Assembly (NCBI RefSeq): GCF_000017305.1
Contig: NC_009664.2
Location: 2,280,001-2,312,000 of the forward strand
Source of the DNA: Kineococcus radiotolerans SRS30216 = ATCC BAA-149
GTDB lineage: Bacteria > Actinomycetota > Actinomycetes > Actinomycetales > Kineococcaceae
Length of the DNA: 32,000 nucleotides
Reading direction: 5' to 3'
The notes under the pieces are model-generated. The model was not told the DNA's origin, searched no databases, and was given only the letters and a program-made list of their open reading frames with translations. This document shows, piece after piece, positions 9,093 to 27,792 of the stretch. Each line of letters starts with the position of its first letter. The stretch's first letter is position 1. The position numbers and the translations under genes were made by a program.

Positions 9093-9809
9093 TCAACCGG
9101 CCGCGGTCAGCGAGGCCGGCGGCCCCGCGGAGCGGTCCTGCACCGACTCCAGCTGCGCGTGCACGACGTAGCGCTGGCGCGCGGAGTGCATCGGGTGGCA
9201 GGCCGTCATGGTCAGCCACGCCTCCGTCGGCGTCTCGCCGGGCCGGCCGGGGACGGGGGCGATGACCGACACCTGCTTCGGGCTGACGACCTCGTGGGAG
9301 CGGACCCGGTACGTGAACCACTGCGTGGCGGTGGCCACGACGACCGCGTCGCCCTCCTGCAGGTCGGCGATGAGGTGGAACGGCTTGCCGTAGGTGACGC
9401 GGTGCCCGGCGATCGCGAAGTTGCCGACCTCCCCGGGCAGCGCGGCGTCGGCGTAGTGGCCGATGCCCTCCTTCAGCTCCTCGGTCCCGGTGCCCTCCAC
9501 GACGGGGACGGCGTAGTCCTCGCCGAAGCGCGGGACGTGCAGGATCGCGAAGGCGTCGCCGGTGGGCGGGGTCTCGTCGACCGCGCGGGCGGTGGCGGGA
9601 GCCGTCGGGGCCGCCGTCGCCGCGGCGCCCGCCGTCGCGGTCGGCGCGGGGGCGGCGTCCCACTGCTGCTGCAGCGAGGTGACGGTGGCCGCCTGCGCGC
9701 GCCCGGAGGTCAGGTCGGTCCAGTGCAGCTGCCAGACGACGAACAGCAGCGTCAGCACCCCGGCGGTGACCAGCAGCTCCCCGAGCACCGAGGTGGCCCG
9801 GCGGATCAC
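9093..9809 (-). CDS. Class E sortase
   Basis: It has a TM anchor (LGELLVTAGVLTLLFVVW), a catalytic His (AIAGHRVTYG), a Cys (LTMTACHP) and an Arg (RQRYVVHAQL). I place the start at GTG 9809, which overlaps the DUF881 stop (GTGA). The 339-aa track ORF is over-extended. Confidence 0.8.
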   Translation of the reverse strand: MIRRATSVLGELLVTAGVLTLLFVVWQLHWTDLTSGRAQAATVTSLQQQWDAAPAPTATAGAAATAAPTAPATARAVDETPPTGDAFAILHVPRFGEDYAVPVVEGTGTEELKEGIGHYADAALPGEVGNFAIAGHRVTYGKPFHLIADLQEGDAVVVATATQWFTYRVRSHEVVSPKQVSVIAPVPGRPGETPTEAWLTMTACHPMHSARQRYVVHAQLESVQDRSAGPPASLTAAG

Positions 9810-10564
9810 GGGGCGCCCGCGGTGGCGTGGGTGGTGCTCGTGGTGCCGTCGAAGGCGGGCAGCTGGAGGTCGTCGGCCTCGGAGACGTCGTAGCCCAGCC
9901 CGTAGGCGCTGACGTACTGGCGGTAGACCGAGACCGCGGCGGAGGCGGCGAGGCCCGCGCGTAGGGCGTCGACGTCGCCGACGGCGCTGATCCGGTAGGG
10001 CGGGGAGTACGTGCGTCCCTGCAGGACGAGGACGTTGCCCACGCAGCGCACCGCGGAGGTCGACACGATCCGCTGGTCCATGATCACCATGGCCTCGGCC
10101 CCGGCGGCCCACAGGGCGTTGACCACGGCCTCCACGTCCTGCTGGTGCACGACGAGGTCGTCGGGGGCCGCTCCCGCGGGGCGCGGGCGGTCGATGGGGG
10201 CGTCGTCGAGGGTGACCGTCACCCCGGGGCCGGTGACGGCCAGCGCCCCGGAGGCGGTGCCCAGCGCGGCGTCGCGCAGGGGGTCGTCCACCACGGCCGA
10301 GCCCGTCCCGGCGGCGCGGCTGAGGGCCTCGACCTCCCCGCGCAGGGCGGAGACCTGCGCGGAGCGCTGCTCGTTGTCGCGCGAGCGCTGGGCGACGAGG
10401 GAGCCGAGGTCGGCGTTCTCCGAGCGCAGGTCGCTGCCCCGGGAGGTCTGGGCGCTGGTGGCGAAGAGGAGCCCGGCGAGGACGAACACCGCGGCCACGG
10501 CCAGCCGGCGCGGGGCCGGGCGGGGCAGGGCGTGGACCCGGCGCGGACCAGCCACCACGTGCAC
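9806..10564 (-). CDS. DUF881 domain-containing membrane protein
   Basis: It has an N-terminal TM helix, a coiled-coil segment (LVAQRSRDNEQRSAQVSALRGEVEALS), then VTGPGVTVTLDD ... VVNALWAAGAEAM ... PPYRISAVGD, typical of DUF881. It keeps the conserved position between crgA and sortase E. Confidence 0.8.
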   Translation of the reverse strand: MHVVAGPRRVHALPRPAPRRLAVAAVFVLAGLLFATSAQTSRGSDLRSENADLGSLVAQRSRDNEQRSAQVSALRGEVEALSRAAGTGSAVVDDPLRDAALGTASGALAVTGPGVTVTLDDAPIDRPRPAGAAPDDLVVHQQDVEAVVNALWAAGAEAMVIMDQRIVSTSAVRCVGNVLVLQGRTYSPPYRISAVGDVDALRAGLAASAAVSVYRQYVSAYGLGYDVSEADDLQLPAFDGTTSTTHATAGAP

Positions 10565-10657: not shown

Positions 10658-10990
10658 GTGTCCCGCCGCAAGGAGTCCGACGACGCCGGGTCGACGACAG
10701 GCGCCGCGACCGGCGCCACCGCCGCGACCCCGGCCCGGTCCCGCCGGGGCCGCAAGGGGCAGCCCGACGCGGTCGCCGAGGCCGACCGCGCCGTCAAGCG
10801 CAAGAACCAGCTCACGCCCCGCTGGTGGATCTTCCTCATGGTCGGCCTCATGGTCGCGGGGCTGCTGTGGATCGTGGTCTTCTACCTCTCCAGCGCGCTG
10901 CTGCCGGTGCCGGGCTGGGACAACTGGAACCTCGTCGCCGGCTTCGGGCTGGTCCTGGTGGGGTTCGCGATGACCACCCGGTGGCGCTGA
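10658..10990 (+). CDS. crgA: Cell division protein CrgA
   Basis: The 110-aa protein VSRRKESDD...TPRWWIFLMVGLMVAGLLWIVVFYLS...WNLVAGFGLVLVGFAMTTRWR has the two-TM CrgA signature. GTG 10658 has GGAGG 5 nt upstream. The track ORF 10145..10990 is over-extended. Confidence 0.85.
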   Translation: MSRRKESDDAGSTTGAATGATAATPARSRRGRKGQPDAVAEADRAVKRKNQLTPRWWIFLMVGLMVAGLLWIVVFYLSSALLPVPGWDNWNLVAGFGLVLVGFAMTTRWR

Positions 10991-11088: not shown

Positions 11089-12012
11089 GTGCTGCACGTC
11101 GTCTACCGATCCCACGGTGGTGAGAACGCCAAGGGACGGCCCGCCTGGTACTCCAAGCACCTGGCCCTGCTGTCCTTCCTGCGCGCCGTCGAGCAGTGCC
11201 CGGCGCGGGGGGAGGTCGTCTTCCTCAACGACGGCCCCATCCCCCGGGACCGGCTGGAGCCGATGCGCCGGCACGGCCGGGTCGCCGCGATCACCGGCGG
11301 CAGCAACCGCGCGAGCTACCTCGCCGGGTTGCGGCTGGCGGTGCGCTCGGAGTGGTCCGACGACGACGTCGTCCTCTTCGCCGAGGACGACTACCTGTGG
11401 CGCCCCGACGCGCTGACGTCGCTGTCGGCGGCGGCGGCGACGGGCCGCGCGGAGTACTTCGCCCCCTACGGCGTGGGCACCCACGACGACGTCGAGGGCC
11501 GGGTGCCGCAGTGGCGGCGCCCGCGCGCGGCCCGCGGCGAGGACGCGCTGCCGGCCGACGTGGTGCGGTGGGTGCCGCACGAGAGCACCACGAGCACCTT
11601 CGCGGTGCGGGTGGGGGCGCTGCGCCAGGACCACCGGATCCTCGTGGTGTGCTGCCTCTCCGGCGGCGACTTCGACCACACCAGCCTGCTGGCGGTGCAG
11701 GGGATCCCCCGCTTCCGGCTGCACGACCTCGTCTCCCACCACCCCGGGACGTCGACGAACCCCGCGGTGCGCGCGGCCCGGGCGGTGTACCTGACGGCGT
11801 TCCGCAGCGCCGCCGACGTGGTGTCGCTGCGGCGCCCCTCGCGCCGCCGGCGCCTGGCCGCGGCCGACCCGGCGGTGTGCACGCACATGGAGGACGGCTG
11901 GCTGGCCCCCGCGCCGGCCGGGCAGCCGCGCTACTGGGAGGACCTGGCGGCGCAGACGCACCGCTGGGCGGAGGGCCGCACGGAGGGCCGGGAACCGCTC
12001 GGCACCCGCTGA
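11089..12012 (+). CDS. Hypothetical protein, GT-A-fold glycosyltransferase-like
   Basis: The 307-aa ORF has EVVFLNDGPIP and DVVLFAEDDYLWRPDAL (a DxD-type motif after a hydrophobic strand), arranged as in family-2-like GT-A enzymes. I recognise no firm family. Confidence 0.55.
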   Translation: MLHVVYRSHGGENAKGRPAWYSKHLALLSFLRAVEQCPARGEVVFLNDGPIPRDRLEPMRRHGRVAAITGGSNRASYLAGLRLAVRSEWSDDDVVLFAEDDYLWRPDALTSLSAAAATGRAEYFAPYGVGTHDDVEGRVPQWRRPRAARGEDALPADVVRWVPHESTTSTFAVRVGALRQDHRILVVCCLSGGDFDHTSLLAVQGIPRFRLHDLVSHHPGTSTNPAVRAARAVYLTAFRSAADVVSLRRPSRRRRLAAADPAVCTHMEDGWLAPAPAGQPRYWEDLAAQTHRWAEGRTEGREPLGTR

Positions 12013-12036
12013 GCGCGGGCCCGGCCACCGCCCGTC

Positions 12037-12227
12037 CTGTCCACCGCCTGGGGATGACGTGTGGACGGCTGGGGGAAACCGGGCGGGTTGTCCACAGCCA
12101 CTGTCCACCGGTTCGTCCACACCTTGTGGATAGGTGTGGGAAACGAACCCTGGTGTCCACAGAGGTACCCACACGCGGTGGATGACCGCGGGCGGTTCGC
12201 ACAGCTGTGCGAACCGCCTGTGGACGG
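12037..12227. promoter_or_regulatory. DnaA-box cluster (about 11 boxes, both orientations)
   Basis: 9-mers compared with TT(G/A)TCCACA: 12037 CTGTCCACC; 12060 rc CCGTCCACA; 12088 TTGTCCACA (perfect); 12101 CTGTCCACC; 12113 TCGTCCACA; 12125 rc CTATCCACA; 12135 rc TTTCCCACA; 12153 GTGTCCACA; 12165 GTACCCACA; 12177 rc TCATCCACC; 12219 rc CCGTCCACA. All lie in the 226-bp convergent gap between two stop codons. Confidence 0.55.
12191..12218. terminator. 28-bp perfect palindrome GGCGGTTCGCACAGCTGTGCGAACCGCC (possible bidirectional terminator or protein site)
   Basis: Read directly. It starts 21 nt downstream of the rhomboid stop (12239) on the minus strand. There is no U-tract. It is embedded between DnaA-like boxes. 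Confidence 0.4.
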
Positions 12228-12238
12228 AGCGGGACGGG

Positions 12239-13075
12239 TCAGAGGGTCCAGCGCAGCGCCGCGTAGGCGAGCAGCGCCAGCACCGCGAGCGCGACGGCGG
12301 CGGTCCAGCCCCACTGCAGGGCCGGGCGGCCCCGGCGCCCGCGGGCCATCGCCGTGGCGACCAGGGCCCCGGTGACCATGCCGCCCAGGTGGGCCTGCCA
12401 GGAGATGCCCGCCACGAACACCCCGATGAAGAAGTTGATCGCGATGAGGGCCGCGATCTGCCCGGTCCGGCGCCCCAGCTGGCGGTTGACCACGAACAGC
12501 GCCGCGAACAGGCCGAAGATGCCGCCGGAGGCCCCCACCAGGGTGCTGCCCGCCGTCCCCGGCAGCAGCAGGCCGCCCACGGCCCCGCCCAGCACCGAGA
12601 CGACGTACAGCGCGGTGAAGCGCAGCCGCCCCAGCAGCGGTTCCAGGTACTGCCCGGTGACCCACAGGGCGTAGGTGTTGAAGAGCAGGTGCAGCAGGCC
12701 GCCGTGCAGGAAGCCGGAGGTCAGCGGCTGCCACCAGGTGGCGGCGGAGAAGGCGTTGGAGTACAGCCGCGCGTCGTCGTTGATCAGCGGCAGCCACCGC
12801 AGGACCAGGTCCGGGGCGAGCTGCTGCGCGCCGAACACCACCAGGCAGGTCCCGATGAGGACCTTGGTGACGACGGTGTCCCCGCGGCGCAGCACCCCGC
12901 CGAAGCTGGTGCGGGGCGCGCGGACCCCGCGGTTGCCCTCGGCGACGCAGTCGACGCACTGCACGCCGACGGCGGCCGGGCGCTGGCACTCCGGGCAGGT
13001 GGGCCGCTCGCAGCGCTGGCAGCGGACCCACGACTCGCGGTCGGGGTGACGGGGACAGACGGGGACGTCGCTCAC
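12239..13075 (-). CDS. Rhomboid family intramembrane serine protease with N-terminal zinc ribbon
   Basis: CPRHPDRESWVRCQRCERPTCPECQ provides the 4-Cys ribbon. The protein is multi-TM, with catalytic GASGGIFG (Ser) and a downstream AHLGG (His). Confidence 0.85.
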   Translation of the reverse strand: MSDVPVCPRHPDRESWVRCQRCERPTCPECQRPAAVGVQCVDCVAEGNRGVRAPRTSFGGVLRRGDTVVTKVLIGTCLVVFGAQQLAPDLVLRWLPLINDDARLYSNAFSAATWWQPLTSGFLHGGLLHLLFNTYALWVTGQYLEPLLGRLRFTALYVVSVLGGAVGGLLLPGTAGSTLVGASGGIFGLFAALFVVNRQLGRRTGQIAALIAINFFIGVFVAGISWQAHLGGMVTGALVATAMARGRRGRPALQWGWTAAVALAVLALLAYAALRWTL

Positions 13076-13127: not shown

Positions 13128-13661
13128 TCAGTCGCGTTCGACGTCGACGCTGGAGATGACGACCGGCTCGCGCGGGGCGTCGCCCGGCCCGGTGGCCATG
13201 TTGGCGATGGCGTCCACGACCTGGCGGCTGGCGTCGTCGGCGACCTCGCCGAAGATCGTGTGCTTGCCGTTGAGGTGGGACGTGGTGGCGACGGTGATGA
13301 AGAACTGCGAGCCGTTGGTGCCGTGACCGGCGATCTTCCCGGCGTTGGCCATGGCCAGCAGGTACTTCTTGTCGAAGCGCAGGTCCGGGTGGATCTCGTC
13401 GTCGAACTGGTACCCGGGGCCGCCGCGGCCGTCGCCGCGCGGGCAGCCGCCCTGGATCATGAACCCGTCGATGACGCGGTGGAAGGTCAGGCCGTCGTAG
13501 AAGGGCTGCGACTTCTTCTCACCGGTGGCGGGGTCCTGCCACTCCTTCGTCCCCTCGGCGAGGCCGACGAAGTTCGCCACCGTCTTGGGGGCGTGGTTCT
13601 CGAACAGTTCCAGGCGGATGTCGCCGTGGTTGGTGTGCAGGGTGGCGTACATGCCGCTCAT
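13128..13661 (-). CDS. ppiA: Peptidyl-prolyl cis-trans isomerase, cyclophilin type
   Basis: [35 protein letters not shown] ... [15 protein letters not shown] ... GSQFFIT ... HTIFGEV are unmistakable cyclophilin motifs. ATG 13661 follows GGAAGG. The 506-aa track ORF is over-extended. Confidence 0.92.
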
Positions 13662-13827
13662 CCTTCCACGACCCCTCCACCCCGCTCGCGGGCGTCTGCC
13701 TGGCGGTCCGGCTCGACCTGCGGTGGGATGGCGGGTGGTGATCGTCGCCGGCACGTCGGCGCGGGGCACGAGTCGCGAGCCCCGGACGTCCGCGACGTCA
13801 GAGCAGGACGACGCACGAGGAGGATCC

Positions 13828-14871
13828 GTGACGCACACGAAGAGCCGTACCGAGGCGCTGCCGAGGACCCGCACCGAGGTGCTGCAGGCCCAGGGCGCGG
13901 CCCTGCAGGCGCAGGGTGCCGCGCTGCAGGCGCAGGGCGCCGCGCTCGCCGGGAAGGTCGGGCCGGCCGTCGGCTCGGCGCGGGACTGGGCCACGCCGAA
14001 GGTCGGGGCGGCCATCGAGTGGGCCCAGCCCCGGCTGGAGAAGGGCTGGAGCAGCTCGGTGGAGGCCGCCGCACCGCGCGTGGAGGCCGCCGCCCAGAAG
14101 GTGGGCCCGGCCGTCGACAGCGTCCGCGACAAGATCGTCGACGACCTGCTGCCGAAGTTCGTCGACGCCGTCCAGGACGCCGCCTCCGCGGCCAAGGAGG
14201 CCGCCGTCCCCGCGGTCGCCGCCGCGTCGACCGCCGCCACCAGCGCGGCCACCTCGGCTGCCGAGACGGTGAAGGAGGCCGCGACGTCGGCCAAGGAGGC
14301 CGCGGCCCCCGCGGTCACCGCCGCGACGACCGCGGCCACCACCGCCGCCACCACCGCCGCCGGCACCCTCAAGACCGCCACCGAGTCCGTGCGCGCCGCG
14401 GGCAAGCCCGCCGAGGTCGTCGGCAAGGGCGCCAAGAAGGCGGCCGCGGCGAAGGCGGCCAAGGAGGCGGCCACGAGCAAGACCGCGAAGAAGGCGGCGA
14501 AGGCGGCCGCGGCGGCCAAGGCCGGGAAGAAGGCGACCGACACGGCGAAGAAGCACCCCGCCGCGACGATCGCCACCCTGACCGGGGCCGCGGCGAAGAA
14601 GAACAAGAAGAAGGGCGGGGCCGGGAAGAAGTTCCTGGTCCTCAGCATCCTCGCGGCCGGTGCGGCGGCGGTCTACGCCGCCACGCGCAGCGCCAAGGAG
14701 GACCCGTGGGCGGCCCCGGGTGCGGCCTGGACCCCCGCCCCCGCCGCGACCACCCCGAAGACCCCCGGCACCGAGGCCTCCACCGAGAACCTCGAGAAGG
14801 CGACCGGCGCGCACAACGTCGTCGACGCGAGGGTCGAGGACAACCTGCCCGAGGACGACGCGAAGTCCTGA
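13828..14871 (+). CDS. Ala/Lys-rich membrane-anchored protein (347 aa), positional equivalent of CwsA
   Basis: GTG 13828 has GAGGAGGA upstream. The N-terminus carries amphipathic repeats, and the middle has [17 protein letters not shown] (histone-H1-like) tracts. One hydrophobic helix [17 protein letters not shown] is preceded by [12 protein letters not shown]. The ~55-aa tail is acidic and Pro-rich. The gene is divergent from ppiA and next to tRNA-Ala. Confidence 0.65.
13882..13944 (+). repeat. In-frame 21-bp tandem repeat x3 encoding (LQAQGAA)3
   Basis: Read directly: CTGCAGGCCCAGGGCGCGGCC / CTGCAGGCGCAGGGTGCCGCG / CTGCAGGCGCAGGGCGCCGCG. This is a heptad-length repeat near the N-terminus of the Ala/Lys-rich protein. 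Confidence 0.9.
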
Positions 14872-14927: not shown

Positions 14928-14932
14928 CCCGG

Positions 14933-15005
14933 TGGAGGCAAGGGGACTCGAACCCCTAACCCCCTGCTTGCAAAGCAGGTGCGCTACCAATTGCGCCATG
15001 CCCCC
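14933..15005 (-). tRNA. tRNA-Ala (anticodon TGC)
   Basis: Hand-folded cloverleaf: GGGGGCA TG GCGC AATTGGTA GCGC A CCTGC TTTGCAA GCAGG GGGTT AGGGG TTCGAGT CCCCT TGCCTCC A. The G3:U70 wobble pair is present. CCA is not encoded. Confidence 0.95.
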
Positions 15006-15308: not shown

Positions 15309-16430
15309 GTGGGTGCCATGCCCGCACCCCGCAGCCACCCCCGCACCGCGCTGGTCCACGAGTGGATCTCGGCGCGCGCCGGCGCCGAGCAGGTCTTCGA
15401 GGTCCTCGCCGGGCAGTTCCCGCACGCGGACCTGCACGCGCTGAGCTGCGAACCGGGCGTCGACCTCGACCTCGCCGGACGCACCGTGCGGACCACCGCC
15501 CTGGACGCCCTGCGCGGGCACCGGGCGCTGGCCCTGCCGCTGATGGCCCCCGCGTGGTGGGCCCACGCCCGCGACGTGCGCGGCGGCTACGACCTGGTCC
15601 TCACCTCCCACCACGCCTTCGCCACCTCCAACCGCCTCGTCGCCCCCGGCGGTACGCACCTCGCCTACGTCCACACCCCCGCCCGCTACGTGTGGAGCCC
15701 CGAGCTCGACGGCCGCGGCACCTCCCCCCTGCTGGCCCCCGCGCGGCGGGTGCTGTCCGCGCTGGACCGCGACGCCGCCCGCCGGCTGACGGCGGTCGCG
15801 GCCAACAGCGCCGAGGTGGCGGCGCGCGTGGAGCGGTTCTGGCACCGCGAGGCCGTGGTCATCCACCCGCCTGTGGACGTCGCCGCGTTCGCGGTCCCCG
15901 GCCCGGACACCCTCGACCTGCCCGCGGGCTTCCTCCTCGCCCTGGGGCGGTTCGTCCCCTACAAGAACCACCTCGCCGCGATCGAGGTCGGCGAGCGGCT
16001 GGGGCGTCCCGTCGTCGTCGCCGGCCGCGGGCCGCTGGCCGGGGCGCTGCGCGCGCGGGCCGCGGCCAGCCGGGTCCCCGTCCTCGTCCTCGACTCCCCC
16101 ACCGGCGCGGTGGTGCGCGAGGTGCTGCGCCGCGCGAGCGTCCTGCTCTTCCCCACCGTGGAGGACTTCGGCATCGTCCCGGTCGAGGCGATGGCCTCCG
16201 GCACCCCCGTCGTCGCCCCCTCCCGCGGCGGTTCCGGGGAGACCGTCCTCGACGGCGTCAGCGGCGCCCTCGTCGAGGACCTCGGCGTCCCCGCGCTCGC
16301 CGCGGCCGTCGCCCGCGCCGAGGCGTGCGCACCCGCCGCCTGCCGCGAGCGCGCCCTCGCCTTCGACGTCCCCCGCTTCCGGGAGCGGATCCGCACCTGG
16401 GTCGGGCAGCACGCGGGGGGCCTCGGGTGA
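15309..16430 (+). CDS. Glycosyltransferase family 4 (GT-B)
   Basis: EDFGIVPVEAMASGTPVVAPSRGGSGETVLDGVSGALV is the E-x7-E region, and the N-terminus ALVHEWISARAGAEQV is typical of this GT4 subgroup. The start is GTG 15309 or ATG 15318. Confidence 0.85.
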   Translation: MGAMPAPRSHPRTALVHEWISARAGAEQVFEVLAGQFPHADLHALSCEPGVDLDLAGRTVRTTALDALRGHRALALPLMAPAWWAHARDVRGGYDLVLTSHHAFATSNRLVAPGGTHLAYVHTPARYVWSPELDGRGTSPLLAPARRVLSALDRDAARRLTAVAANSAEVAARVERFWHREAVVIHPPVDVAAFAVPGPDTLDLPAGFLLALGRFVPYKNHLAAIEVGERLGRPVVVAGRGPLAGALRARAAASRVPVLVLDSPTGAVVREVLRRASVLLFPTVEDFGIVPVEAMASGTPVVAPSRGGSGETVLDGVSGALVEDLGVPALAAAVARAEACAPAACRERALAFDVPRFRERIRTWVGQHAGGLG

Positions 16431-17809
16431 TCCTCGAGCTCGGCCTGGCCGCGGCCGCCGCGTTCACCGGCCTGCTGTTCTGCATCACCGCCAGCGACCG
16501 CACCCGCCTGTCGGTGGCGGCGTTCCTCGCCGTCCCGCAGGTCTTCGTGGGCCCGCTGGGCCAGCTGTCGCTGTCGCTGAGCCAGTGCTGGGTCGTGCTC
16601 ATCGCCGTCTGCTGGGTGCTGGAGCGCAAGGAGTTGCCCGTGCGCGACCCGGTGATGCGGGCCGTGCTGCTGCTCGCGATCGCCGCGGGCCTGGCCATCG
16701 CGTGGTCCCCGGACCCGATGGCCGGGGTGCTGGAGGTGATGCGGCTGGTGTCGTTCGCCTTCCTCGTCCTGTACGCGACCCGCGTCGAGCGGCTGCGCCC
16801 CGGGGCGCTGGCGGGGCCGTTCACCGTCGTGCTGCTGTGGGCCCTGCTGAACGCGGTGCTGGTGTGGGCGTTCCGGCTCGCGCCGGCGGTCGAGTCGGCG
16901 TTCCTGCGCTCCCCGGTCTCCAGCCTCGTCGCCGGCCCGAACGCGATGGCGGCGTTCTTCGCCGACGGGGCGAACAACGTGACCGACCCGGCGAAGTCGG
17001 GCGGGTTCTTCATCAACGCGAACGTGTCCTCGATGTTCCTCGGCGTGGCGACGTTCTGCTTCCTCGCCCTCGGCGTCGGCCGGCGCGGCCGGTCCCGCCG
17101 CCTGTGCGCGGCGGGGGCGCTGGTGTGCTGGTCGGCGACGTTCGCCACCGGCTCCAAGACGGCCGCCGCCCTGGCCCTGCTGCTGCCCGTGGCCGTGCGC
17201 GGGGTGCAGGTGCTGGGCCGACCGAACGCGCGCTGGTTCCTGCCCCAGGCCGCCGGCGCCGTCGGCTTCGTCGCCTGGGTCGGGCCCACGGTCCTGGCGC
17301 GGTTCGTCCCCGGCTACGCCGAGGCGTCCTCGGAGAGCCTGGCCAGCCGCGGGCCGATGTGGGAGTTCGCGCTGCAGATGTTCCGCGAGCACCTCCTGCT
17401 GGGGCTCGGCCACGGCGGCTGGTCGGCGACGATCGAGCAGTTCGCCGCCCTCGGCATCACGGCCCTGCCCCCGCACAACCTGTTCATCGCGGCCTGGGCC
17501 GCGACCGGGTTGCCGGGCGTGGCCGCGCTGCTGGGGCTGACCGTGACGATCCTGGCCGTCCTGACCGCGACCGTCGTGCGCCACGTGGGGACCCCGCTGA
17601 CCCGCACGGCGGCGTTCGCGCTGGGCGCCTGGTGGTGGGTGCTCATCCACGGCATGGGCGACAACACCGCGATCTACGGGGAGGCGAAGTCGATGATCCT
17701 GCTCGCGATGCTGCTGGGGCTGGTCGGTGCCCGCGTGCACGCCGTGCGCACCGCCGGGAACGCCGCCGGGAACGCCGCCGGGAACGAGGCGGCGACGTGC
17801 CCCGCGTAG
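16427..17809 (+). CDS. O-antigen ligase/Wzy-like polymerase family membrane protein
   Basis: The 460-aa polytopic protein has FATGSKTAAALALLL, RGPMWEFALQMFREHLLLGLGHGGW and PHNLFI, which match Wzy_C-type motifs. The GTG start overlaps the upstream stop (GTGA at 16427-16430). Confidence 0.75.
   Translation: MILELGLAAAAAFTGLLFCITASDRTRLSVAAFLAVPQVFVGPLGQLSLSLSQCWVVLIAVCWVLERKELPVRDPVMRAVLLLAIAAGLAIAWSPDPMAGVLEVMRLVSFAFLVLYATRVERLRPGALAGPFTVVLLWALLNAVLVWAFRLAPAVESAFLRSPVSSLVAGPNAMAAFFADGANNVTDPAKSGGFFINANVSSMFLGVATFCFLALGVGRRGRSRRLCAAGALVCWSATFATGSKTAAALALLLPVAVRGVQVLGRPNARWFLPQAAGAVGFVAWVGPTVLARFVPGYAEASSESLASRGPMWEFALQMFREHLLLGLGHGGWSATIEQFAALGITALPPHNLFIAAWAATGLPGVAALLGLTVTILAVLTATVVRHVGTPLTRTAAFALGAWWWVLIHGMGDNTAIYGEAKSMILLAMLLGLVGARVHAVRTAGNAAGNAAGNEAATCPA
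17749..17784 (+). repeat. In-frame 12-bp tandem repeat x3 (CGCCGCCGGGAA) encoding (AGNA)-type tail
   Basis: Read directly: CACCGCCGGGAA / CGCCGCCGGGAA / CGCCGCCGGGAA. This is the C-terminal tail TAGNAAGNAAGNEA of the Wzy-like protein, just before the overlapping start of the next gene. Confidence 0.9.
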
Positions 17810-18897
17810 CCGTCCTGCGCCACCGCTTCGGCCTGCCCTCCGAACCCTTCGTCCTGGAGCAGGCGCGCGCGTTCACCCGCTGGGAACCGGTGCTCCTGGC
17901 CCGCGACCCGTTCCCGCCCGGCCTGGAGGGGGCCTCGCTGGCCGCGGCGGGCCCCCTGGCCGTCGCCGCCCACACCGCGGGGCTGGGGTCGGGACCGATG
18001 ACCGCGCTGCTGCGGGACCTGCGCGTGGACGCGGTCCTGGCCCACTTCGGGGTCGAGGCCGCCTGCGCGCTGCCCGCGACCCGGCGCGCGGGGGTCCCGC
18101 TGGCGACGGTGTTCCACGGTTTCGACGCCACGACCACCACGGCCGCGCTGCTGCGCGCCCGCACCGTCTCCTGGGCCACCTACGCCCGGCGGCGGGCGCG
18201 CCTGGCCCGGCAGGGCGAGCTGTTCCTGCCCGTGTCCGAGCACCTGCGGACCCGGCTGCTGGAGCGGGGTTTCCCGCCCGGGCGCACCCGCACCCACCAC
18301 CTGGGGCTGGACCTCGCGAAGGTCCCCGCCGCCGGTGACCCCGAACCCCGCACGATCGTGCACGTGGGCCGGCTGGTGCCGAAGAAGGGGCACGCGCACC
18401 TGCTGCGCGCGCTCGCGGACCTGCCCGGGGTGCGGCTGACGTGCGTCGGGGACGGTCCCCTGCGCGCGGAGCTCTCCGCCCTGGCCGCCGCGCTGGGGGT
18501 CGGGGACCGGGTGGAGTTCGCGGGCCGGCTGGACAACGCCTCGACCCTGGAGCGGATCGCGCGGGCCGCCGTCCTCTGCCTGCCCTCGACGACGGCGCCC
18601 AGCGGGGACCAGGAGGGTCTGGGGCAGGTGCTGCTCGAGGCCGGGGCGATGGGCCGCCCCGTCGTCGCCAGCCGCCACGGCGGCATCCCCTCCGCCGTCG
18701 TCGACGGGGTGACGGGGCTGCTGGTCCCGGAGGGGGACGCCCCCGCGCTGGCCGCCGCGCTGCGCCGGGTCCTCGACGACCCCGCGTTCGCGGCGCGGCT
18801 GGGCTCGGCCGCCGCGGGGCACGTGGCGGAGGAGTTCGACGTGGTGCGCCGCACCGCCCGCCTGGAGGAGCTGCTCGACGGGCTGGTGCACCGGTGA
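17797..18897 (+). CDS. Glycosyltransferase family 4
   Basis: GDQEGLGQVLLEAGAMGRPVVASRHGGIPSAVVDGVTGLLVPEGD. GTG 17797 (VPRVAVLRHRFG) overlaps the upstream gene by 13 nt. The 770-aa track ORF is over-extended. Confidence 0.85.
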   Translation: MPRVAVLRHRFGLPSEPFVLEQARAFTRWEPVLLARDPFPPGLEGASLAAAGPLAVAAHTAGLGSGPMTALLRDLRVDAVLAHFGVEAACALPATRRAGVPLATVFHGFDATTTTAALLRARTVSWATYARRRARLARQGELFLPVSEHLRTRLLERGFPPGRTRTHHLGLDLAKVPAAGDPEPRTIVHVGRLVPKKGHAHLLRALADLPGVRLTCVGDGPLRAELSALAAALGVGDRVEFAGRLDNASTLERIARAAVLCLPSTTAPSGDQEGLGQVLLEAGAMGRPVVASRHGGIPSAVVDGVTGLLVPEGDAPALAAALRRVLDDPAFAARLGSAAAGHVAEEFDVVRRTARLEELLDGLVHR

Positions 18898-20036
18898 GGC
18901 GGGTCGTCGTGCTCACCCGCGGCCTGCCCCTGCACCACGCGGGCGGCATGGAGTCCGTCGCGTGGGACCTGGCCCGGGAACTGGCGCGGACCGCGCCGGT
19001 GACCGTCCTGACGACGTCGCTGCCCGGGCGGGCGGAGTTCGAGCTGGACGGGGTGCGCGTCCGCGCGCTGCCGGGAACCCCTCCCGGGCGGTACTCCGCG
19101 GCGTGGTGGCGGGGTTCCCGCGCGGCGCTGGCCGCGGAACTGTCCGACGGGTCGGTGGCCGGGGTGCTCTCCGTCAGCGCGGGCGCGTTCTCCGGGGTCG
19201 ACCTGGCCGCGGGCCGCGGGGCGCGCACCGTGCTGCAGGCGCACGGGACCTCGGTCATGGAACTCACCTCCAAGCTCACCAGCCGCCGGCTGCGCCCGGT
19301 CCTCTCCTCGGTGCGCAACGTCCACGGCCTGCTCCGCGACGTCGCGACCTACCGCCGCTTCGACACCGTCGCCGCGATCGGGCCCAGCGTCGAGCGCTCC
19401 CTCACCCGGCCCCCGCTGGGGCGCCTGGTCGCCATGCCCCCGGTCCACCTGCTGCCCAACGGGATCGACACCGCGCGGTTCCACCCCGACCCGGCGGCCG
19501 CGGCGCGGGTGCGCCGGGAGCTGGCCGTGCCCGAGGGTTCCCCGCTGCTGCTCGTCGCGGGCCGGCTGCACCCGCAGAAGCGCGTCGACCGCTCGGTGCA
19601 GCTGCTGACCGGTTCCGGCGCGGTCCTGGTCCTCGCCGGCGACGGCCCCGAACGCGCCCCGCTGCAGCGCCTGGCCGCGGAGCTCGGGGTCGACGACCGG
19701 GTCCGGTTCCTGGGGGCGGTGGAGCGCGGGCGGCTGCCCGCGCTGTACGCGGCCGCGGACGTCTCGCTGCTCACCTCGCAGTGGCGGGAGGGCCTGCCGA
19801 TGGCCGTCCTGGAGTCCCTGGCCTGCGGGACCCCCGTCGTCACGTCGCTGACCACGGCCCCCGTGGAGGGGGCGGGGGACGCGGTGACCCGCGCCGACGC
19901 GACCAGCCCCCGGGCCCTGGCCGCCACGGTCGGGGACGTCCTGGAGCGCGGGCGGTCGACGGTGCCGCTGCTGCCGCCCGGCTACGACCTGGCGTCGGTG
20001 GCGCGGCGGTACGCGGTGCTGCTGGGCGCCGGCTGA
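18894..20036 (+). CDS. Glycosyltransferase family 4
   Basis: VRRVVVLTRGLPLHHAGGMESVAWDLAREL at the N-terminus, and SQWREGLPMAVLESLACGTPVVTS. The GTG start overlaps the upstream stop (GTGA 18894-18897). Confidence 0.8.
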   Translation: MRRVVVLTRGLPLHHAGGMESVAWDLARELARTAPVTVLTTSLPGRAEFELDGVRVRALPGTPPGRYSAAWWRGSRAALAAELSDGSVAGVLSVSAGAFSGVDLAAGRGARTVLQAHGTSVMELTSKLTSRRLRPVLSSVRNVHGLLRDVATYRRFDTVAAIGPSVERSLTRPPLGRLVAMPPVHLLPNGIDTARFHPDPAAAARVRRELAVPEGSPLLLVAGRLHPQKRVDRSVQLLTGSGAVLVLAGDGPERAPLQRLAAELGVDDRVRFLGAVERGRLPALYAAADVSLLTSQWREGLPMAVLESLACGTPVVTSLTTAPVEGAGDAVTRADATSPRALAATVGDVLERGRSTVPLLPPGYDLASVARRYAVLLGAG

Positions 20037-21490
20037 TGCGCGACGCCGTCCGGCGCCTCGTCCTCGGCGGGCTGGTCGGCAAGCTGCTGGGCCTGCTGCG
20101 GGAGGTGCTGCTCGCCGCGGCCTACGGCACGGGGGTCCCCACCACCGCGGCCCGGGTGGCGCAGACCGGGACCCTCGTCCCCGTCGACCTCTTCACCGCC
20201 GACGTCCTCACTGCGGGTTTCCTGCCCCTGCACAAGGAGCTCCTCACCACCGACCCGGCGCGCGCGGCGACGCTGTTCCGCGGGGTGCGGGTGGCGCTGC
20301 GGTGGCTGGCGGCCGTGCTCACCCTCGGGTCGCTGGCGCTGGCGCCCGCGGTGGTGGACCTGCTGGCCCCTGGTCTGGCCCCCGCGACGGCGGCCACCTG
20401 CGCGCAGTTCCTGCGGGTGATGGCCCTGGGGATCCCCAGCTACCTGCAGTTCTCGCTGCTGAGCTACCTGGAGATCTCCCACGGGGGGTTCCGGTTGTCC
20501 AGCGCGCGGGCCACGGCGCAGAACCTCGGGATGCTCCTCGCCCTGGGCCTGGCCTGGGTGCTGGGGGAACCGGTCGTGCTGGCGGGCGGTTTCGCCGCGG
20601 CCTACCTCGTCCTGCACGCGTGGGGGTACCGCTCGGTGCGCGCCCGCGGGTTCCTGCCCGCGGCGGGCGGCGGGGGCGGGCGGGAGCTGCGGTCCCGGCT
20701 GTGGCGGCGGGTGCGCCCGCTGCTGCTGCTGCCGGTGGTGCTGCAGGGTTCCGTCGTGGCCGAACGGGTCGTCGCCTCGCTCATGGGCGACGAGGTCGTC
20801 GCCGCCGTGGACTACGCCCGCTTCGTCGCGACGACCGGGGTGAACCTCGTCGCGGTGCCGCTGGGCCTGGCCGGGCTCGCGGCGCTGGCGGGACTGGGCA
20901 CCGCCGCCGCCCGCGAGCGCCTGGCCGCGATCCTGCCCGGGTTGCTGCTCGTGGTGGCCCCGGTCTCGGTGGTGCTGGCGGTGGGGAGCTCCCCCGTCGT
21001 GGAGGTCCTCTACGCCCGCGGCGCCTTCGACGCCGCGGCGGTGGCGACGTCGGCGTCGGTGCTGGCGGGCCTCGGGCTGGGCTTCTGGGCGCAGTCGTGC
21101 GCGTACGTGCTGGTGAAGGCCCTGAACGCCGCGGACCGGAACCGGGTGGCGGCGGGGTCGCTGCTGGCGGGTCTGGTCGTGACGCTGGTGCTGAACGTGG
21201 CGCTGCACGCGTGGCTGGGGCCGGTGACGCTGGGGCTGGCCTCCTCGGCCGGGGCGGTGGTGACGGCCGCGGTCGCGGCGCACGCGCTCGGGGTGGGGGC
21301 GCTGCTGTGGCGCTGGGTGGGGGCGTGCGTGCCGGTGGCGGGTGCGGCGTGGCTGCTGTGCGGGCGGCTGCCGGCGGCGTCGGGCTGGCCGGGTCTGCTG
21401 GGCGTGGGCGGGTGCGTGCTGGTCGTGTTCGGCCTGGCCGCGGCGCTGCTGCCGCCGTGGCGGCGGGTGGTCCGGTCGCTGGTGCGCTGA
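20036..21490 (+). CDS. MurJ/MviN-family (MOP superfamily) flippase-like protein
   Basis: The 484-aa polytopic protein starts with GKLLGLLREVLLAAAYGTGVPTTAARVAQTGTLVPVDLFTADVLTAGFLPLH, which resembles the MurJ N-terminal signature. ATG 20036 overlaps the upstream TGA by 1 nt. Confidence 0.7.
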   Translation: MRDAVRRLVLGGLVGKLLGLLREVLLAAAYGTGVPTTAARVAQTGTLVPVDLFTADVLTAGFLPLHKELLTTDPARAATLFRGVRVALRWLAAVLTLGSLALAPAVVDLLAPGLAPATAATCAQFLRVMALGIPSYLQFSLLSYLEISHGGFRLSSARATAQNLGMLLALGLAWVLGEPVVLAGGFAAAYLVLHAWGYRSVRARGFLPAAGGGGGRELRSRLWRRVRPLLLLPVVLQGSVVAERVVASLMGDEVVAAVDYARFVATTGVNLVAVPLGLAGLAALAGLGTAAARERLAAILPGLLLVVAPVSVVLAVGSSPVVEVLYARGAFDAAAVATSASVLAGLGLGFWAQSCAYVLVKALNAADRNRVAAGSLLAGLVVTLVLNVALHAWLGPVTLGLASSAGAVVTAAVAAHALGVGALLWRWVGACVPVAGAAWLLCGRLPAASGWPGLLGVGGCVLVVFGLAAALLPPWRRVVRSLVR

Positions 21491-21506
21491 GCCGGGCCCG
21501 GCGGGT

Positions 21507-22643
21507 TCACGCCGCGAGCAGCGCCCCGGCGAGCGCCCGCAGCTCCCGTCCCCGCGACGTCCAGTCCTGCCCGCGGGCGAGGTCGGCGACCCGCGCCGGG
21601 CGGGCCGGGTCGGGGTCGGCGAGCACGTCCAGCACCCGGGCGGTGAACTCCGGGCGCGCGGTGACGAACACCGCCCCGGGCACCGCGGCGACGGCGGGCA
21701 GCGGCGTGCTCACCACCGGCAGGCCCGCCGCGAGGTACTCGAAGGTCTTCAGCGGGCTGATGCCCGCGGTCAGCGGGGACACCCGGTAGGGCACGATCCC
21801 GACGGTCGCGGCGGCGAGCTCGTCGGCGAGGGCACCCGCCGGCAGCGGGCCGACGACCTCGGCGCCGGCGGCCAGCAGCCGCGCCCACGCGGGGTCGCCG
21901 GCGCAGTCGGCGGTGACGGGCCCGATGAGGCGCAGCCGCCCGCGCCCGCGCAGGGCGGTGGCGAGGTCGAGGAGCAGGGGCAGGTCGACCTTGTGCGGGG
22001 CGAGGGTCCCGGCGAAGACGACGGTCGCGGAGCGGGGGGCGCCGCGCCCGCGGGCGGCGGCGAAGAGGTCCACGTCGCACACGTTGGGCAGGCACCGGGT
22101 CGCGGCGAAACCCCGTTCGCGCAGGTGCTCCTGCACGGCGGGGCTGGTGGCGAGGGCGAGGTCGGTGCCGGCCGCCAGGGACCGCTCGGCGGCGAGCAGG
22201 CGGGCGCGGTGCACGCCGGGGTTCTCGTGGAGGAGGTCGACGAGGTGGTAGACGGTCCGGTCGGCCAGCGCCTCCAGGCCGTACGTGAACGGGGTGTACG
22301 TCCACAGCAGCCGCGGCCCGTCGTGCTCGACCCAGCGCCGGACCTGCCGGCGCAGCGCCCACCCGTTGACCGCGCGGGTGGAGGGGGCGTGGTGGGGGAC
22401 GAGGCGGGGGCTGACGACCTCCAGGCCCGCCGGCACGGGGCGGCCCGGGACGGGCGCGGGCGGGCGCAGCCGCCGCAGGACGCGGCGCGCGTCGGAGACC
22501 CGCAGCCGGCGGGTGCCGGTGCCCTCGGCGAACAGCACCGGCCAGCGGCGGGCGAGCGCGGGGGCGACGTGGTGCTGGTTGGTGGCGATCGCGGCGTCCC
22601 AGTCGGCGGTGCCGAGGACGAGCACCAGCGGGGCGGCGCTCAC
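21507..22643 (-). CDS. Glycosyltransferase (GT-B, GT4/TuaH-like)
   Basis: VSAAPLVLVLGTADWDAAIATNQHHVAPALA at the N-terminus, and ISPLKTFEYLAAGLPVVSTPLP at the C-terminal end. GTG 22643 overlaps the stop of the upstream sugar transferase (GTGA). Only the 3' 378 codons of the 855-aa track ORF are credible. Confidence 0.75.
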   Translation of the reverse strand: MSAAPLVLVLGTADWDAAIATNQHHVAPALARRWPVLFAEGTGTRRLRVSDARRVLRRLRPPAPVPGRPVPAGLEVVSPRLVPHHAPSTRAVNGWALRRQVRRWVEHDGPRLLWTYTPFTYGLEALADRTVYHLVDLLHENPGVHRARLLAAERSLAAGTDLALATSPAVQEHLRERGFAATRCLPNVCDVDLFAAARGRGAPRSATVVFAGTLAPHKVDLPLLLDLATALRGRGRLRLIGPVTADCAGDPAWARLLAAGAEVVGPLPAGALADELAAATVGIVPYRVSPLTAGISPLKTFEYLAAGLPVVSTPLPAVAAVPGAVFVTARPEFTARVLDVLADPDPARPARVADLARGQDWTSRGRELRALAGALLAA

Positions 22644-27787: not shown

Positions 27788-27792
27788 GAGGG

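Follow-up and report, generated by a model that had tools for sequence, protein, structure and literature searches.

The 226-bp gap between two convergent genes of Kineococcus radiotolerans contains a dense cluster of DnaA boxes and is probably a dedicated DnaA-binding regulatory locus that acts on the pool of initiation-competent DnaA, being neither an origin nor a promoter. The cluster occupies positions 12037–12227 of the window, the stretch of 32,000 nucleotides that was analyzed. The gap is also likely to be the Kineococcus version of an actinobacterial element located between crgA and the next gene, at 10–30 kb from oriC. A sequence-only reading of this DNA had proposed a secondary DnaA-binding locus distinct from origins and promoters, and the proposal gained comparative support from the consensus of the boxes of oriC, a footprint in 10 species, synteny, and a mycobacterial counterpart that is bound by DnaA.

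The genes used to define the position of the cluster are the following.

10658–10990, plus strand: crgA, encoding a cell-division membrane protein (from its translation; homologues contain PF06781 and are named CrgA).
11089–12012, plus strand: gene X, GT2-like and restricted to Kineococcus (99% identity to a K. radiotolerans protein).
12239–13075, minus strand: rhomboid protease gene (Pfam Rhomboid, E = 1.7e-27).
28442–31174, minus strand: gyrA, 16.2 kb from the cluster.

As previously noted from the sequence, both flanking genes end in the gap, gene X (plus strand) and the rhomboid gene (minus strand) being convergent, and gyrA lies approximately 16 kb away. The gap had been described as devoid of promoter, and a scan for sigma-70-like promoters detected none in it. 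The crgA gene, which is conserved across Actinobacteria, is the left-hand landmark of the element. The 3' end of the rhomboid gene is the conserved right-hand neighbor of the cluster, the rhomboid stop codon being located approximately 110–170 bp from the cluster center in every clade in which the cluster occupies this position. Gene X, for which a Pfam search returned no match and whose homologues are nearly all from Kineococcus, is an insertion that, in the K. radiotolerans subclade, separates crgA from the cluster. It is missing from loci L005, L007, L008, and L009, in which the cluster directly follows crgA. Gene X was rejected as a part of the element and considered as a lineage-specific insertion. 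A plasmid origin or a mobile element was also rejected, as megablast detected no match in PLSDB.

Both strands were scanned for TTGTCCACA with a maximum of two mismatches. Nine DnaA boxes were detected in 12037–12227, one perfect, two with one mismatch, and six with two mismatches. Eleven boxes had previously been counted (one perfect, three with one mismatch, and seven with two); the perfect box at 12088–12096 (plus strand) was recovered, and the two other counts were not. Three further 9-mers match the consensus at six positions only, TCATCCCCA at 12049 (minus strand), GTACCCACA at 12165, and TCATCCACC at 12177 (minus strand). Since these three variants are conserved genus-wide and are recognized as boxes by the published M. 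tuberculosis position weight matrix (PWM), the total number of box-like sites was set at about 12. The features of the array are the following.

12037–12045, plus strand: DnaA box CTGTCCACC, 7/9, opening unit U1 (-> 3 bp <- 2 bp <-); aligned with TTGTCCACC in most Kineococcus species, with an identity to the window of 0.73.
12049–12057, minus strand: variant box TCATCCCCA, 6/9 (plus strand TGGGGATGA); the 'CCCCA' variant common to the mycobacterial and Microbacterium module; TGGGGA core nearly invariant in Kineococcus alignment A2; M. tuberculosis PWM score of 11.4; identical 9-mer in the M. tuberculosis site.
12060–12068, minus strand: DnaA box CCGTCCACA, 7/9, from the scan, the alignment, and the PWM.
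12088–12096, plus strand: perfect DnaA box TTGTCCACA, leading a direct triplet with 13- and 12-bp phasing; core identity of 0.93 in 10 species.
12101–12109, plus strand: DnaA box CTGTCCACC, 7/9; core invariant in 10 species.
12113–12121, plus strand: DnaA box TCGTCCACA, 8/9, opening unit U2 (-> 3 bp <- 1 bp <-); core invariant.
12125–12133, minus strand: DnaA box CTATCCACA, 7/9, forming a convergent pair with the box at 12113; core invariant.
12135–12143, minus strand: DnaA box TTTCCCACA, 7/9; TGTGGG-AA invariant.
12153–12161, plus strand: DnaA box GTGTCCACA, 8/9; core invariant; the last box of unit U3 in the minus-strand reading.
12165–12173, plus strand: variant box GTACCCACA, 6/9; CCCACA nearly invariant in A2; PWM score of 10.5.
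12177–12185, minus strand: variant box TCATCCACC, 6/9, opening U3 in the minus-strand reading (-> 3 <- 3 <-); GTGGA invariant.
12196–12213, no strand assigned: 18-bp palindrome TTCGCACA-GC-TGTGCGAA, conserved.
12219–12227, minus strand: DnaA box CCGTCCACA, 7/9, the distance to the palindrome being fixed; core identity of 0.92.

The boxes are phased by 10–13 bp and form one direct triplet and three '-> <- <-' units (12037–12068, 12113–12143, and 12185–12153, the latter on the minus strand). The base composition agreed with the earlier estimate of near 13% for A and T each (11.9% and 12.8%, respectively), and the core TCCAC/GTGGA was, as reported, present nine times in the cluster, out of 114 occurrences in the whole window. 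All four TGTCCAC heptamers of the window are located within the cluster. The scan detected no other perfect box in the window, as had been claimed, and the three boxes with at most one mismatch are all within 12088–12161. That the cluster exceeds chance was borne out by 5000 shuffled versions of the 226-bp gap with preserved dinucleotides, which contained 0.96 ± 0.96 boxes (maximum of 5) versus nine in the actual sequence, and by a Poisson probability of 1.7e-11 against the window background. In the approximately 45 kb that were examined, the cluster ranked second, after oriC only.

The oriC of K. radiotolerans is the dnaA-dnaN intergenic region, located approximately 25.5 kb from the cluster. 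This region (L081:2857–3665) was reached through gyrA, the overlap with the window being 100% identical. It contains 13 boxes of the TTGTCCACA consensus, including three perfect ones. Thus, TTGTCCACA is the right consensus for this strain, since its own oriC uses it. The sequence-only reading had also considered an origin remnant, and a decayed or auxiliary oriC-like region, or a cryptic second origin, would account for a box density close to that of oriC, for the '-> <- <-' units common to oriC and the cluster, and for the local GC minimum of the gap (50% in 30 bp), which is as low as that of oriC. However, oriC displays a DnaA-trio-like TACTACGACGAT preceded by a pair of boxes and GGGC, whereas the gap contains no run of at least four nAn triplets and no unwinding element. 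The gap also lacks extended similarity to oriC (local alignment score of 32 versus a mean of 24.6 and a maximum of 34 for shuffled sequences), and an oriC duplicate was rejected on the basis of this score. In addition, the gap is limited to 226 bp between convergent coding regions, and its architecture has been maintained for far longer than a decaying remnant would survive. The proposal of an origin remnant was therefore not supported, and we regard an origin of any kind as extremely improbable.

The cores of the boxes and their order, orientation, and spacing were kept in 10 of 10 Kineococcus species, and the spacers diverged. Identity to the window was 0.83 for the boxes (0.92 for their cores) versus 0.44 for the spacers (p = 1e-17). 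The spacing of +13, +12, +12, +10, and +18 was identical across the 10 species, and the spacer of the convergent pairs was 3 bp in all 11 Kineococcus cases. This pattern of sequence conservation indicates that purifying selection acts on the identity, order, and orientation of the boxes and on the length of the spacers.

Conservation at the rhomboid 3' end of related genomes had been suggested as a check, and the cluster is present at this position in all 10 Kineococcus species and in several other genera. The top box window was located in the crgA-rhomboid interval for 10 of 10 Kineococcus, 27 of 27 Arthrobacter-group, 4 of 4 Curtobacterium, and 44 of 44 Streptomyces-like loci, and this interval likewise holds the top box cluster in Dermacoccaceae. 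Microbacterium has only a compact version of approximately 45 bp. No large cluster was detected in the nearest relatives, Quadrisphaera and Kineosporiaceae metagenome-assembled genomes, which counts against the main reading. The cluster is close to the origin in every clade examined. In Micrococcales, the spacer of the convergent pair was 2 bp in 79 of 92 cases. The '-> -> <-' triple, whose topology is that of the E. coli DARS1 core, was present in 51 of 61 loci and absent from 1.09 Mb of flanking sequence.

A composite module, made up of a palindrome, a variant box of sequence TCATCCCCA, and an inverted box, matched 98 times in 1.31 Mb, 91 of these matches being located inside crgA-side gaps, and was present in three of three mycobacterial loci. 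Module-bearing intermediates that can be aligned with the mycobacterial core were found in Microbacterium, Arthrobacter, Curtobacterium, and Leekyejoonella. The orientation of the module relative to crgA is reversed between lineages, which argues against a gene-directed role. K. radiotolerans has the parts of the module in a non-contiguous form, TCATCCCCA and a convergent box at 12037–12068 and the palindrome at 12196–12213 beside the unit at 12185–12153. The best match of a module HMM built from the other genera was marginal in Kineococcus (12154–12185, minus strand, E = 0.07) and, because of this value, homology to the cross-genus module is not claimed from the profile alone. The correspondence between the Kineococcus and mycobacterial loci is marginal by profile search; the arguments for it are synteny, the intermediate taxa, and short motifs common to both.

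The mycobacterial counterpart is the site located by crgA between Rv0010c and Rv0011c, for which binding of DnaA has been observed by IDAP-seq, by EMSA, and by ChIP-seq in M. smegmatis (Hicks 2020, PLoS Pathog, PMC7738170). This site is mutated in clinical isolates of M. tuberculosis, and engineered SNPs in it led to longer cells and to higher isoniazid tolerance, as did dnaA variants, the cell lengthening being considered by the authors as fitting hypomorphic dnaA alleles (PMC7738170). The convergent clinical SNPs fall in the two cores, ACA and TGT, of the mycobacterial palindrome. Mycobacteria have no rhomboid gene at this position, and their compact module, which is the Rv0010c-Rv0011c site, is found just downstream of crgA. 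The two loci share the gene order DUF881, crgA, site, next gene, and ppiA, at 10–25 kb from oriC. In K. radiotolerans, the cluster lies on the ppiA side of crgA, before the next gene apart from the inserted gene X, and less than approximately 30 kb away from oriC. Both contain box-like 9-mers, including an identical TCATCCCCA convergent with another box, and a small palindrome with a CACA...TGTG core. In contrast to the approximately five, mostly degenerate boxes of mycobacteria, Kineococcus has about 12 that are nearer the consensus. Its cluster is in a convergent gap by a rhomboid gene and is separated from crgA by the inserted gene, its palindrome has a 2-nt center (4 nt in mycobacteria) and other arms, its module has the reverse orientation with respect to crgA, and the profile match is marginal, as stated above. 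The Kineococcus locus is a new example of a kind already known from the experimentally DnaA-bound mycobacterial site. In the literature searched, we found no description of a crgA-side DnaA-box element outside mycobacteria. We expect, with considerable confidence, that DnaA binds the Kineococcus cluster in vivo.

The palindrome is the same in 8 of 10 Kineococcus species save for the two central nucleotides, and its flanks are not conserved. TTCGCAC is the top enriched 7-mer in the Kineococcus gaps (437-fold). The palindrome may be a degenerate convergent box pair, the site of a second protein, or a hairpin without a U-tract. If TTCGCACA-NN-TGTGCGAA were the true site of another DNA-binding protein, the boxes would be incidental or a compositional accident, in keeping with the enrichment of this palindrome over any other word in the Kineococcus gaps, with the low score of its arms (5/9 versus TTGTCCACA), and with the recurrence of TTCGCAC near the module in several genera. 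Against this stand the exact match of the boxes to the oriC consensus of the strain, the exclusion of chance by the shuffles, the conservation of every individual box core, and the binding of purified DnaA to the orthologous region (PMC7738170). A second protein could bind together with DnaA rather than replace it, and this explanation appears very improbable.

In the window, the palindrome extends to a 17-bp stem (12186–12223), and the hairpin at 12186–12224 folds as RNA with −35.7 kcal/mol on the plus strand (z = −8) and −27.2 on the minus strand. Conservation of the hairpin is limited to the inner 8 bp. A conserved RNA structure was rejected, as RNAalifold on eight Kineococcus sequences paired plus-strand with minus-strand boxes, with invariant pairs and a covariation term of +0.67. 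At the gathering threshold, the Rfam scan detected two tRNAs and no other RNA family; a permissive scan of 11800–12450 returned chance miRNA models only, all with E ≥ 0.7. The terminator scan yielded one weak minus-strand site (12164–12148), and the hairpin is not followed by a U-tract or T-run, as an intrinsic terminator would be. The gap could in principle act on transcription, as a site at which bound DnaA blocks or terminates transcription between crgA-gene X on one side and ppiA-rhomboid on the other, as a terminator lacking a U-tract, or in the control of a small transcript. A convergent gap without a canonical terminator other than this weak site, the very stable hairpin, the constant proximity of the cluster to the rhomboid stop codon, and the location of the mycobacterial site upstream of Rv0010c would all fit. 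These features have to be weighed against a gap with no promoter-like site and no Rfam match, conservation without covariation, that is, of sequence rather than of pairing, a U-less hairpin conserved only in its inner part, and the reversal of the module relative to crgA among lineages. Furthermore, expression of Rv0010c and Rv0011c, the genes flanking the mycobacterial site, is unchanged in dnaA mutants (PMC7738170). We consider a role in transcription improbable.

DnaA-box clusters outside oriC offer several points of comparison with the K. radiotolerans locus. Streptomyces coelicolor reportedly carries three such clusters, D78, H69, and H24. We assume that crgA (SCO3854) lies on cosmid H69, so that the 'H69' cluster may be the crgA-rhomboid element. 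The S. coelicolor clusters resemble the Kineococcus cluster in that boxes of the TTGTCCACA type are grouped near the origin, but not in oriC, and in that the host is a high-GC actinobacterium, and the Streptomyces-like contigs have their top cluster near crgA in a crgA-rhomboid convergent gap (44/44); in contrast, the functional data belong to D78, which is another locus. A negative effect on replication has been attributed to D78 (PMC3479198; PMC3245932). According to the literature, clusters of DnaA boxes proximal to oriC exert a negative effect and occur commonly in Actinobacteria (PMC3245932; PMC3479198). Likewise, datA and the DnaA-box clusters (DBCs) of Bacillus subtilis restrain initiation, and do so best near the origin (PMC3245932; PMC5742627). 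They share with the Kineococcus locus high-affinity boxes clustered outside oriC and, for some, a location at gene ends rather than at promoters. They display no sequence homology to it, and a strict cross-phylum geometry is not a known feature of DBCs. Unlike the gap, in which no co-factor site was recognizable, datA requires an IHF site, and it promotes ATP hydrolysis.

The core of E. coli DARS1, TTATCCACT-5-TGTGGATAA-3-TGTGTATTA (read from NC_000913; PMC6868365), has three close boxes, one convergent with two direct ones, a topology present three times in the window. DARS loci are also non-coding, are neither origins nor promoters, and have a spacing that is conserved among relatives. They differ from the Kineococcus locus in that the spacers of DARS1 are 5 and 3 bp (3 and 1–3 bp in Kineococcus) and in that '-> <- <-' units occur in the oriC of K. 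radiotolerans as well; this topology is therefore not diagnostic of a DARS-type function. Gln208 of E. coli DnaA, a residue of the head-to-head interface required for DARS activity, is replaced by Asn in K. radiotolerans DnaA (segment SEEFTNDFI), and Leu290 is conserved. The DARS-specific residue is thus not conserved. The literature searched contained no description of DARS outside Proteobacteria.

By the mechanism that we propose, DnaA would occupy the array cooperatively, with a head-to-tail arrangement on the direct boxes and a head-to-head one where boxes converge. The locus would be replicated within about a minute of initiation, and the DnaA-array complex would alter the pool of DnaA competent for initiation. 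The convergent core, which is conserved, might then act on the nucleotide or oligomeric state of DnaA, as do E. coli DARS or datA, and be more than a passive sink, and the additional boxes of high quality in Kineococcus would boost local recruitment of DnaA. On balance, we expect the locus to affect the timing of initiation or the coupling of replication to the cell cycle. Given such an effect, geometry-dependent remodeling would have slightly less than an even chance and pure titration a substantial minority share, the rest being left to other mechanisms. We lean towards remodeling because of the strictly conserved geometry and of the mycobacterial genetics.

A role as a sink has been proposed for the oriC-proximal clusters of B. 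subtilis, for D78 of S. coelicolor, and, in the original view, for datA. A passive titration sink at the K. radiotolerans locus would bind many DnaA molecules near oriC, double after initiation, lower free DnaA, and thereby discourage re-initiation. The dense, high-quality array, with one perfect box, two one-mismatch boxes, and about 12 boxes in all, suits such a sink, as does a location at 25.5 kb from oriC, since the origin proximity kept in each of the clades fits titration loci at least as well. The negative role of the oriC-proximal clusters common in Actinobacteria (PMC3245932; PMC3479198) and the expansion of box number in Kineococcus, Arthrobacter, and Streptomyces, which suits a capacity function, point in the same direction. 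However, a sink could work without a fixed orientation and without spacers of 2–3 bp kept across the phylum, and the minimal form of Microbacterium and Mycobacterium, with three to five boxes, offers too few for much titration. Mutations in the boxes of M. tuberculosis resemble dnaA variants with a hypomorph-consistent cell length, not over-initiation, and occupancy in M. smegmatis was modest (4.7-fold for the crgA site versus 225-fold for the site upstream of dnaB in ChIP; PMC7738170). Titration as the whole explanation thus appears possible, albeit rather doubtful. We advance with similar reserve, as a tentative proposal, that the cluster is the expansion in one lineage of a phylum-wide, geometry-constrained DnaA-remodeling element, which would be the equivalent of DARS or datA in Actinobacteria. 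The proposed remodeling core, of approximately 45 bp, comprises the ACA/TGT palindrome, the CCCCA-variant box, and convergent canonical boxes at a 2–3-bp spacing. It has been retained beside crgA from Mycobacterium to Micrococcales, the boxes being clear and the palindrome variant or not evident in Kineococcus and Streptomyces.

The mechanisms that limit replication to once per cycle in Actinobacteria are poorly understood and, to our knowledge, these bacteria lack SeqA, Hda, and known datA or DARS loci. The crgA-side DnaA-box element has a conserved position and a geometry that is exact within clades (Kineococcus, Micrococcales, Streptomyces-like, and Mycobacterium). The comparative map leads to testable predictions concerning the invariant bases, the clinical SNPs located in the invariant ACA/TGT cores, and the minimal Microbacterium form of approximately 45 bp. 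If the remodeling proposal is correct, this element, which is the one recurrently mutated in clinical M. tuberculosis, would be the first nucleotide-state switch of the DARS type outside Proteobacteria, and it would provide a mechanism for the dnaA/Rv0010c-Rv0011c isoniazid-tolerance pathway. As a candidate regulator of initiation located outside oriC, the cluster obviously comes first in K. radiotolerans.

The window (G+C content of 75%) was scanned with the DnaA-box consensus TTGTCCACA, and 9-mers with at most two mismatches were counted as boxes. Nine boxes were detected at positions 12037-12227, including one perfect match, two matches with one mismatch, and six with two mismatches. Additional variants matching the consensus at 6/9 positions are present at 12049, 12165, and 12177, all three being conserved. 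All matches with at most one mismatch (n = 3) and all TGTCCAC heptamers (n = 4) of the whole window are located inside this cluster. The sequence-only reading had described a dense cluster of 11 boxes. Rescanning reduced the tally to nine, but the density remained far above that of 5000 dinucleotide shuffles of the gap (0.96 ± 0.96 boxes, maximum 5) and above the window background (Poisson probability of 1.7e-11), which confirms the reported cluster. The cluster occupies a gap between convergent genes, in which no promoter was found, in agreement with its initial description as promoter-less, and for which Rfam returned no match.

Features in the neighbourhood of the gap
9806-10564, minus strand, DUF881 gene
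10658-10990, plus strand, crgA
11089-12012, plus strand, gene X (no match in the Pfam search)
12013-12238, 226-bp gap between gene X and the rhomboid gene
12239-13075, minus strand, rhomboid gene
about 13128-13660, minus strand, cyclophilin gene ppiA
14931-15005, minus strand, tRNA-Ala
27791-27866, minus strand, tRNA-Ile
28442-31174, minus strand, gyrA
from 31239, minus strand, gyrB (start only)

Gene X encodes a protein with 99% identity to one from Kineococcus radiotolerans, and nearly all of its homologues come from Kineococcus. Insertion of gene X between crgA and the box cluster is restricted to the K. radiotolerans subclade. The protein is GT2-like, a few distant homologues occur in Quadrisphaera and Pseudonocardia, and several genomes harbor a second copy (about 55% identity). 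On the other side of the gap, two long high-GC3 ORFs overlap, one on the minus strand (13128-14648) and one on the plus strand (13525-14871). The cyclophilin domain is confined to roughly the last 170 codons of the minus-strand ORF, and the true gene at 13.7-14.9 kb is probably the plus-strand ORF, which had no Pfam match. At 16430-22640, many long ORFs overlap on both strands, none of which passed the GC3/GC2 filter.

The oriC region of the strain was used as a yardstick. Contig L081, retrieved by looking up the GyrA of the window, overlaps the window by 3559 nt (100% identity) and contains rpmH, dnaA, oriC, dnaN, recF, gyrB, and gyrA. The dnaA-dnaN spacer (oriC, L081:2857-3665) harbors 13 boxes with at most two mismatches, three of them perfect, with a 10-12-bp phasing, and the dnaA promoter region contains four boxes. 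Since TTGTCCACA boxes populate the strain's own oriC, the cluster uses the organism's own box; both are made of -> <- <- units (arrows indicate box orientation). oriC lies outside the window, to its right, about 25.5 kb from the cluster, and ranked first among the box clusters of the roughly 45 kb examined, the cluster ranking second. A DnaA-trio-like run, TACTACGACGAT, is present in oriC (L081:3373) directly after the box pair TTGTCCACA/TTGTGCACG and GGGC. The AT-rich stretches of this oriC do not exceed 3 nt. In the gap, neither strand contains a run of four nAn triplets, and no extended similarity to oriC was detected. An origin or an origin remnant, the latter having been offered as an alternative in the sequence-only reading, is therefore unlikely, and we rejected the remnant reading.

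Eighty genomic loci were retrieved via CrgA alignment. For each of the 9 other species of Kineococcus, the strongest cluster of boxes at the locus is downstream of crgA, either after gene X (L001-L004 and L006) or, where gene X is missing, straight after crgA (L005 and L007-L009). The layout is identical in all ten species: three boxes run in direct orientation (+13, +12), the next two are inverted (+12, +10), and another direct box follows (+18). The alignment columns without variation correspond to the box cores. Relative to the window, identity was 0.83 for boxes (0.92 for their cores), 0.86 for an 18-bp palindrome, and 0.44 for spacers (Mann-Whitney p = 1e-17). RNAalifold proposed pairings only between boxes of opposite orientation, all pairs being invariant (covariation term of +0.67). 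Together with the lack of an Rfam match and of a promoter, these invariant pairs indicate that the constraint acts on sequence motifs of the DNA duplex, suggestive of protein binding. The origin-type DnaA boxes of the cluster form a dense, footprinted array of fixed geometry, located in a promoter-less convergent gap near oriC. In the relatives nearest to Kineococcus among the retrieved loci (L011, L013, and L070, from Quadrisphaera and Kineosporiaceae MAGs), the crgA-rhomboid gap is 7-80 bp and the large cluster is absent; the big array is therefore either a Kineococcus expansion or was lost in sister lineages.

The palindrome (12196-12213) reads TTCGCACA-GC-TGTGCGAA. Its genus-wide form, TTCGCACA-NN-TGTGCGAA, has a 2-nt centre, the rest being invariant in 8/10 species with divergent flanks. 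In the window strain, the stem extends to 17 bp (12186-12223; hairpin of -35.7 kcal/mol) and is not followed by a U-tract. The arms are poor DnaA boxes, and a second DNA-binding protein may therefore recognize the palindrome. The word TTCGCAC is found again next to the box module in loci of Microbacterium, Leekyejoonella, and Flexivirga and in Streptomyces-like loci.

Beyond the genus, we determined for each locus whether the top-scoring 250-bp box window falls between crgA and the rhomboid 3' end.

Loci with the top box window in the crgA-rhomboid interval
Arthrobacter-group, 27/27
Curtobacterium, 4/4
Leekyejoonella / Flexivirga, 2/2
Janibacter, 1/1
Streptomyces-like metagenome contigs, 44/44

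Conservation at the rhomboid 3' end, which the sequence-only reading had singled out for verification, extends from Kineococcus to these clades. The distance from the cluster to the rhomboid stop codon stays at about 110-170 bp, inserted genes being always located between crgA and the cluster (gene X in the window, 1.5-4 kb in many Arthrobacter). The Microbacterium gap is about 60 bp (median 64 bp) and contains few canonical boxes. It is filled by a compact composite module consisting of an imperfect palindrome, AAyyACA-N4-TGTrAyT, a variant box, TCATCCCCA, 2-3 bp, and an inverted canonical box (about 6220-6330 in L010, L020, L021, L031, L035, L038, and others: palindrome, TCATCCCCA, N2, TGGGGATGA or TGTGGATGA). 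This smallest natural form of the element is suited to biochemistry. A regular expression for the palindrome had 98 matches in the 1.31 Mb of fetched loci, 91 of them inside gaps; the others include all three mycobacterial loci fetched for comparison. Spacing is tightly constrained: of the convergent spacers, 79 of 92 in Micrococcales measure 2 bp, and all 11 in Kineococcus measure 3 bp. A -> -> <- triple was found in 51 of the 61 non-Kineococcus loci and never in 1.09 Mb of flanking DNA.

Genome-wide DnaA binding has been mapped by IDAP-seq in M. tuberculosis and by ChIP-seq in M. smegmatis (Hicks et al., PMC7738170). Five regions were common to both species: oriC, rpmH-dnaA, upstream of dnaB, Rv3843c, and the Rv0010c-Rv0011c (crgA) intergenic region, the latter being confirmed by EMSA (PMC7738170). 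Just downstream of crgA, the three mycobacterial loci share the core CCAATCACACGCATGTGATTCATCCCCAyTGTTGATAGCGyyTGTGGATAAC. This core is the composite module of Microbacterium and Arthrobacter; in reverse complement, it can be aligned by eye to the module of Curtobacterium. S11 Table of PMC7738170 was placed on the M. tuberculosis-type locus L084 (22/22 reference bases consistent). Within the palindrome, clinical convergent SNPs (L084:5352-5402) affect both cores, ACA with 9, 2, and 7 events and TGT with 6, 3, and 3, which are the phylum-wide invariant positions of the motif. The 22 independent IS6110 insertions are located in the stretch that separates the palindrome from the TCATCCCCA box. 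Engineered SNPs at the site led to longer cells and higher isoniazid tolerance, like dnaA variants, the lengthening being consistent with hypomorphic dnaA alleles according to the authors; expression of Rv0010c and Rv0011c was unchanged in dnaA mutants (PMC7738170).

The TCATCCCCA 9-mer of the mycobacterial module occurs unchanged in the window, where it converges with a box (12037-12068, read CTGTCCACC-GCC-TGGGGATGA-CG-TGTGGACGG). In addition, the minus strand contains the palindrome (12213-12196) and, after it, a -> <- <- unit (12185-12153). When a profile was built from the module in other genera, it matched only the box part of this minus-strand arrangement (E = 0.07). Orthology therefore rests on synteny and intermediate taxa, by which it is well supported, and is not proven by sequence. 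The Rv0010c-Rv0011c site is the closest known case to the cluster. The box type shared with oriC, the conservation, and the DnaA-bound syntenic site support the original proposal of a secondary DnaA-binding locus.

DnaA would occupy the array cooperatively, thereby modulating the pool of active initiator. Provided that the locus is functional, we slightly favour geometry-dependent remodelling of DnaA, to which we would give close to even chances, over titration, in which the cluster would be a DnaA sink and which we hold to be only slightly less likely. The high box number, the nearness to oriC, and precedents in B. subtilis (PMC3245932) and S. coelicolor (as cited in PMC3479198) argue for titration. 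Remodelling would account for the maintenance of box orientation and 2-3-bp spacers across a phylum, for minimal forms carrying just 3-5 boxes, and for the resemblance of M. tuberculosis box mutations to dnaA variants whose cell-length phenotype fits hypomorphic alleles according to the authors. Also in its favour, the -> <- <- unit shares its topology with the E. coli DARS1 core (TTATCCACT-5-TGTGGATAA-3-TGTGTATTA). However, a DARS-like reading is weakened by the identical units composing the strain's oriC, by cluster spacers unlike those of DARS1, by the replacement of E. coli Gln208 by Asn in K. radiotolerans DnaA, and by the typically origin-proximal location of negative elements.

In the searchable literature, we found no description of a phylum-wide crgA-side element with a fixed composite core, or of core invariant bases coinciding with clinical M. 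tuberculosis mutations. The 'H69' cluster of a 2006 Streptomyces paper may correspond to the crgA-rhomboid cluster. The K. radiotolerans locus joins the extra-oriC DnaA-box clusters (datA, DARS, B. subtilis DBCs, and S. coelicolor D78) and is not a new type of system. Its significance is lowered by the fact that DnaA-box clusters near the origin are expected in Actinobacteria, and it gains from the cross-phylum architecture and the tie to an M. tuberculosis tolerance locus.
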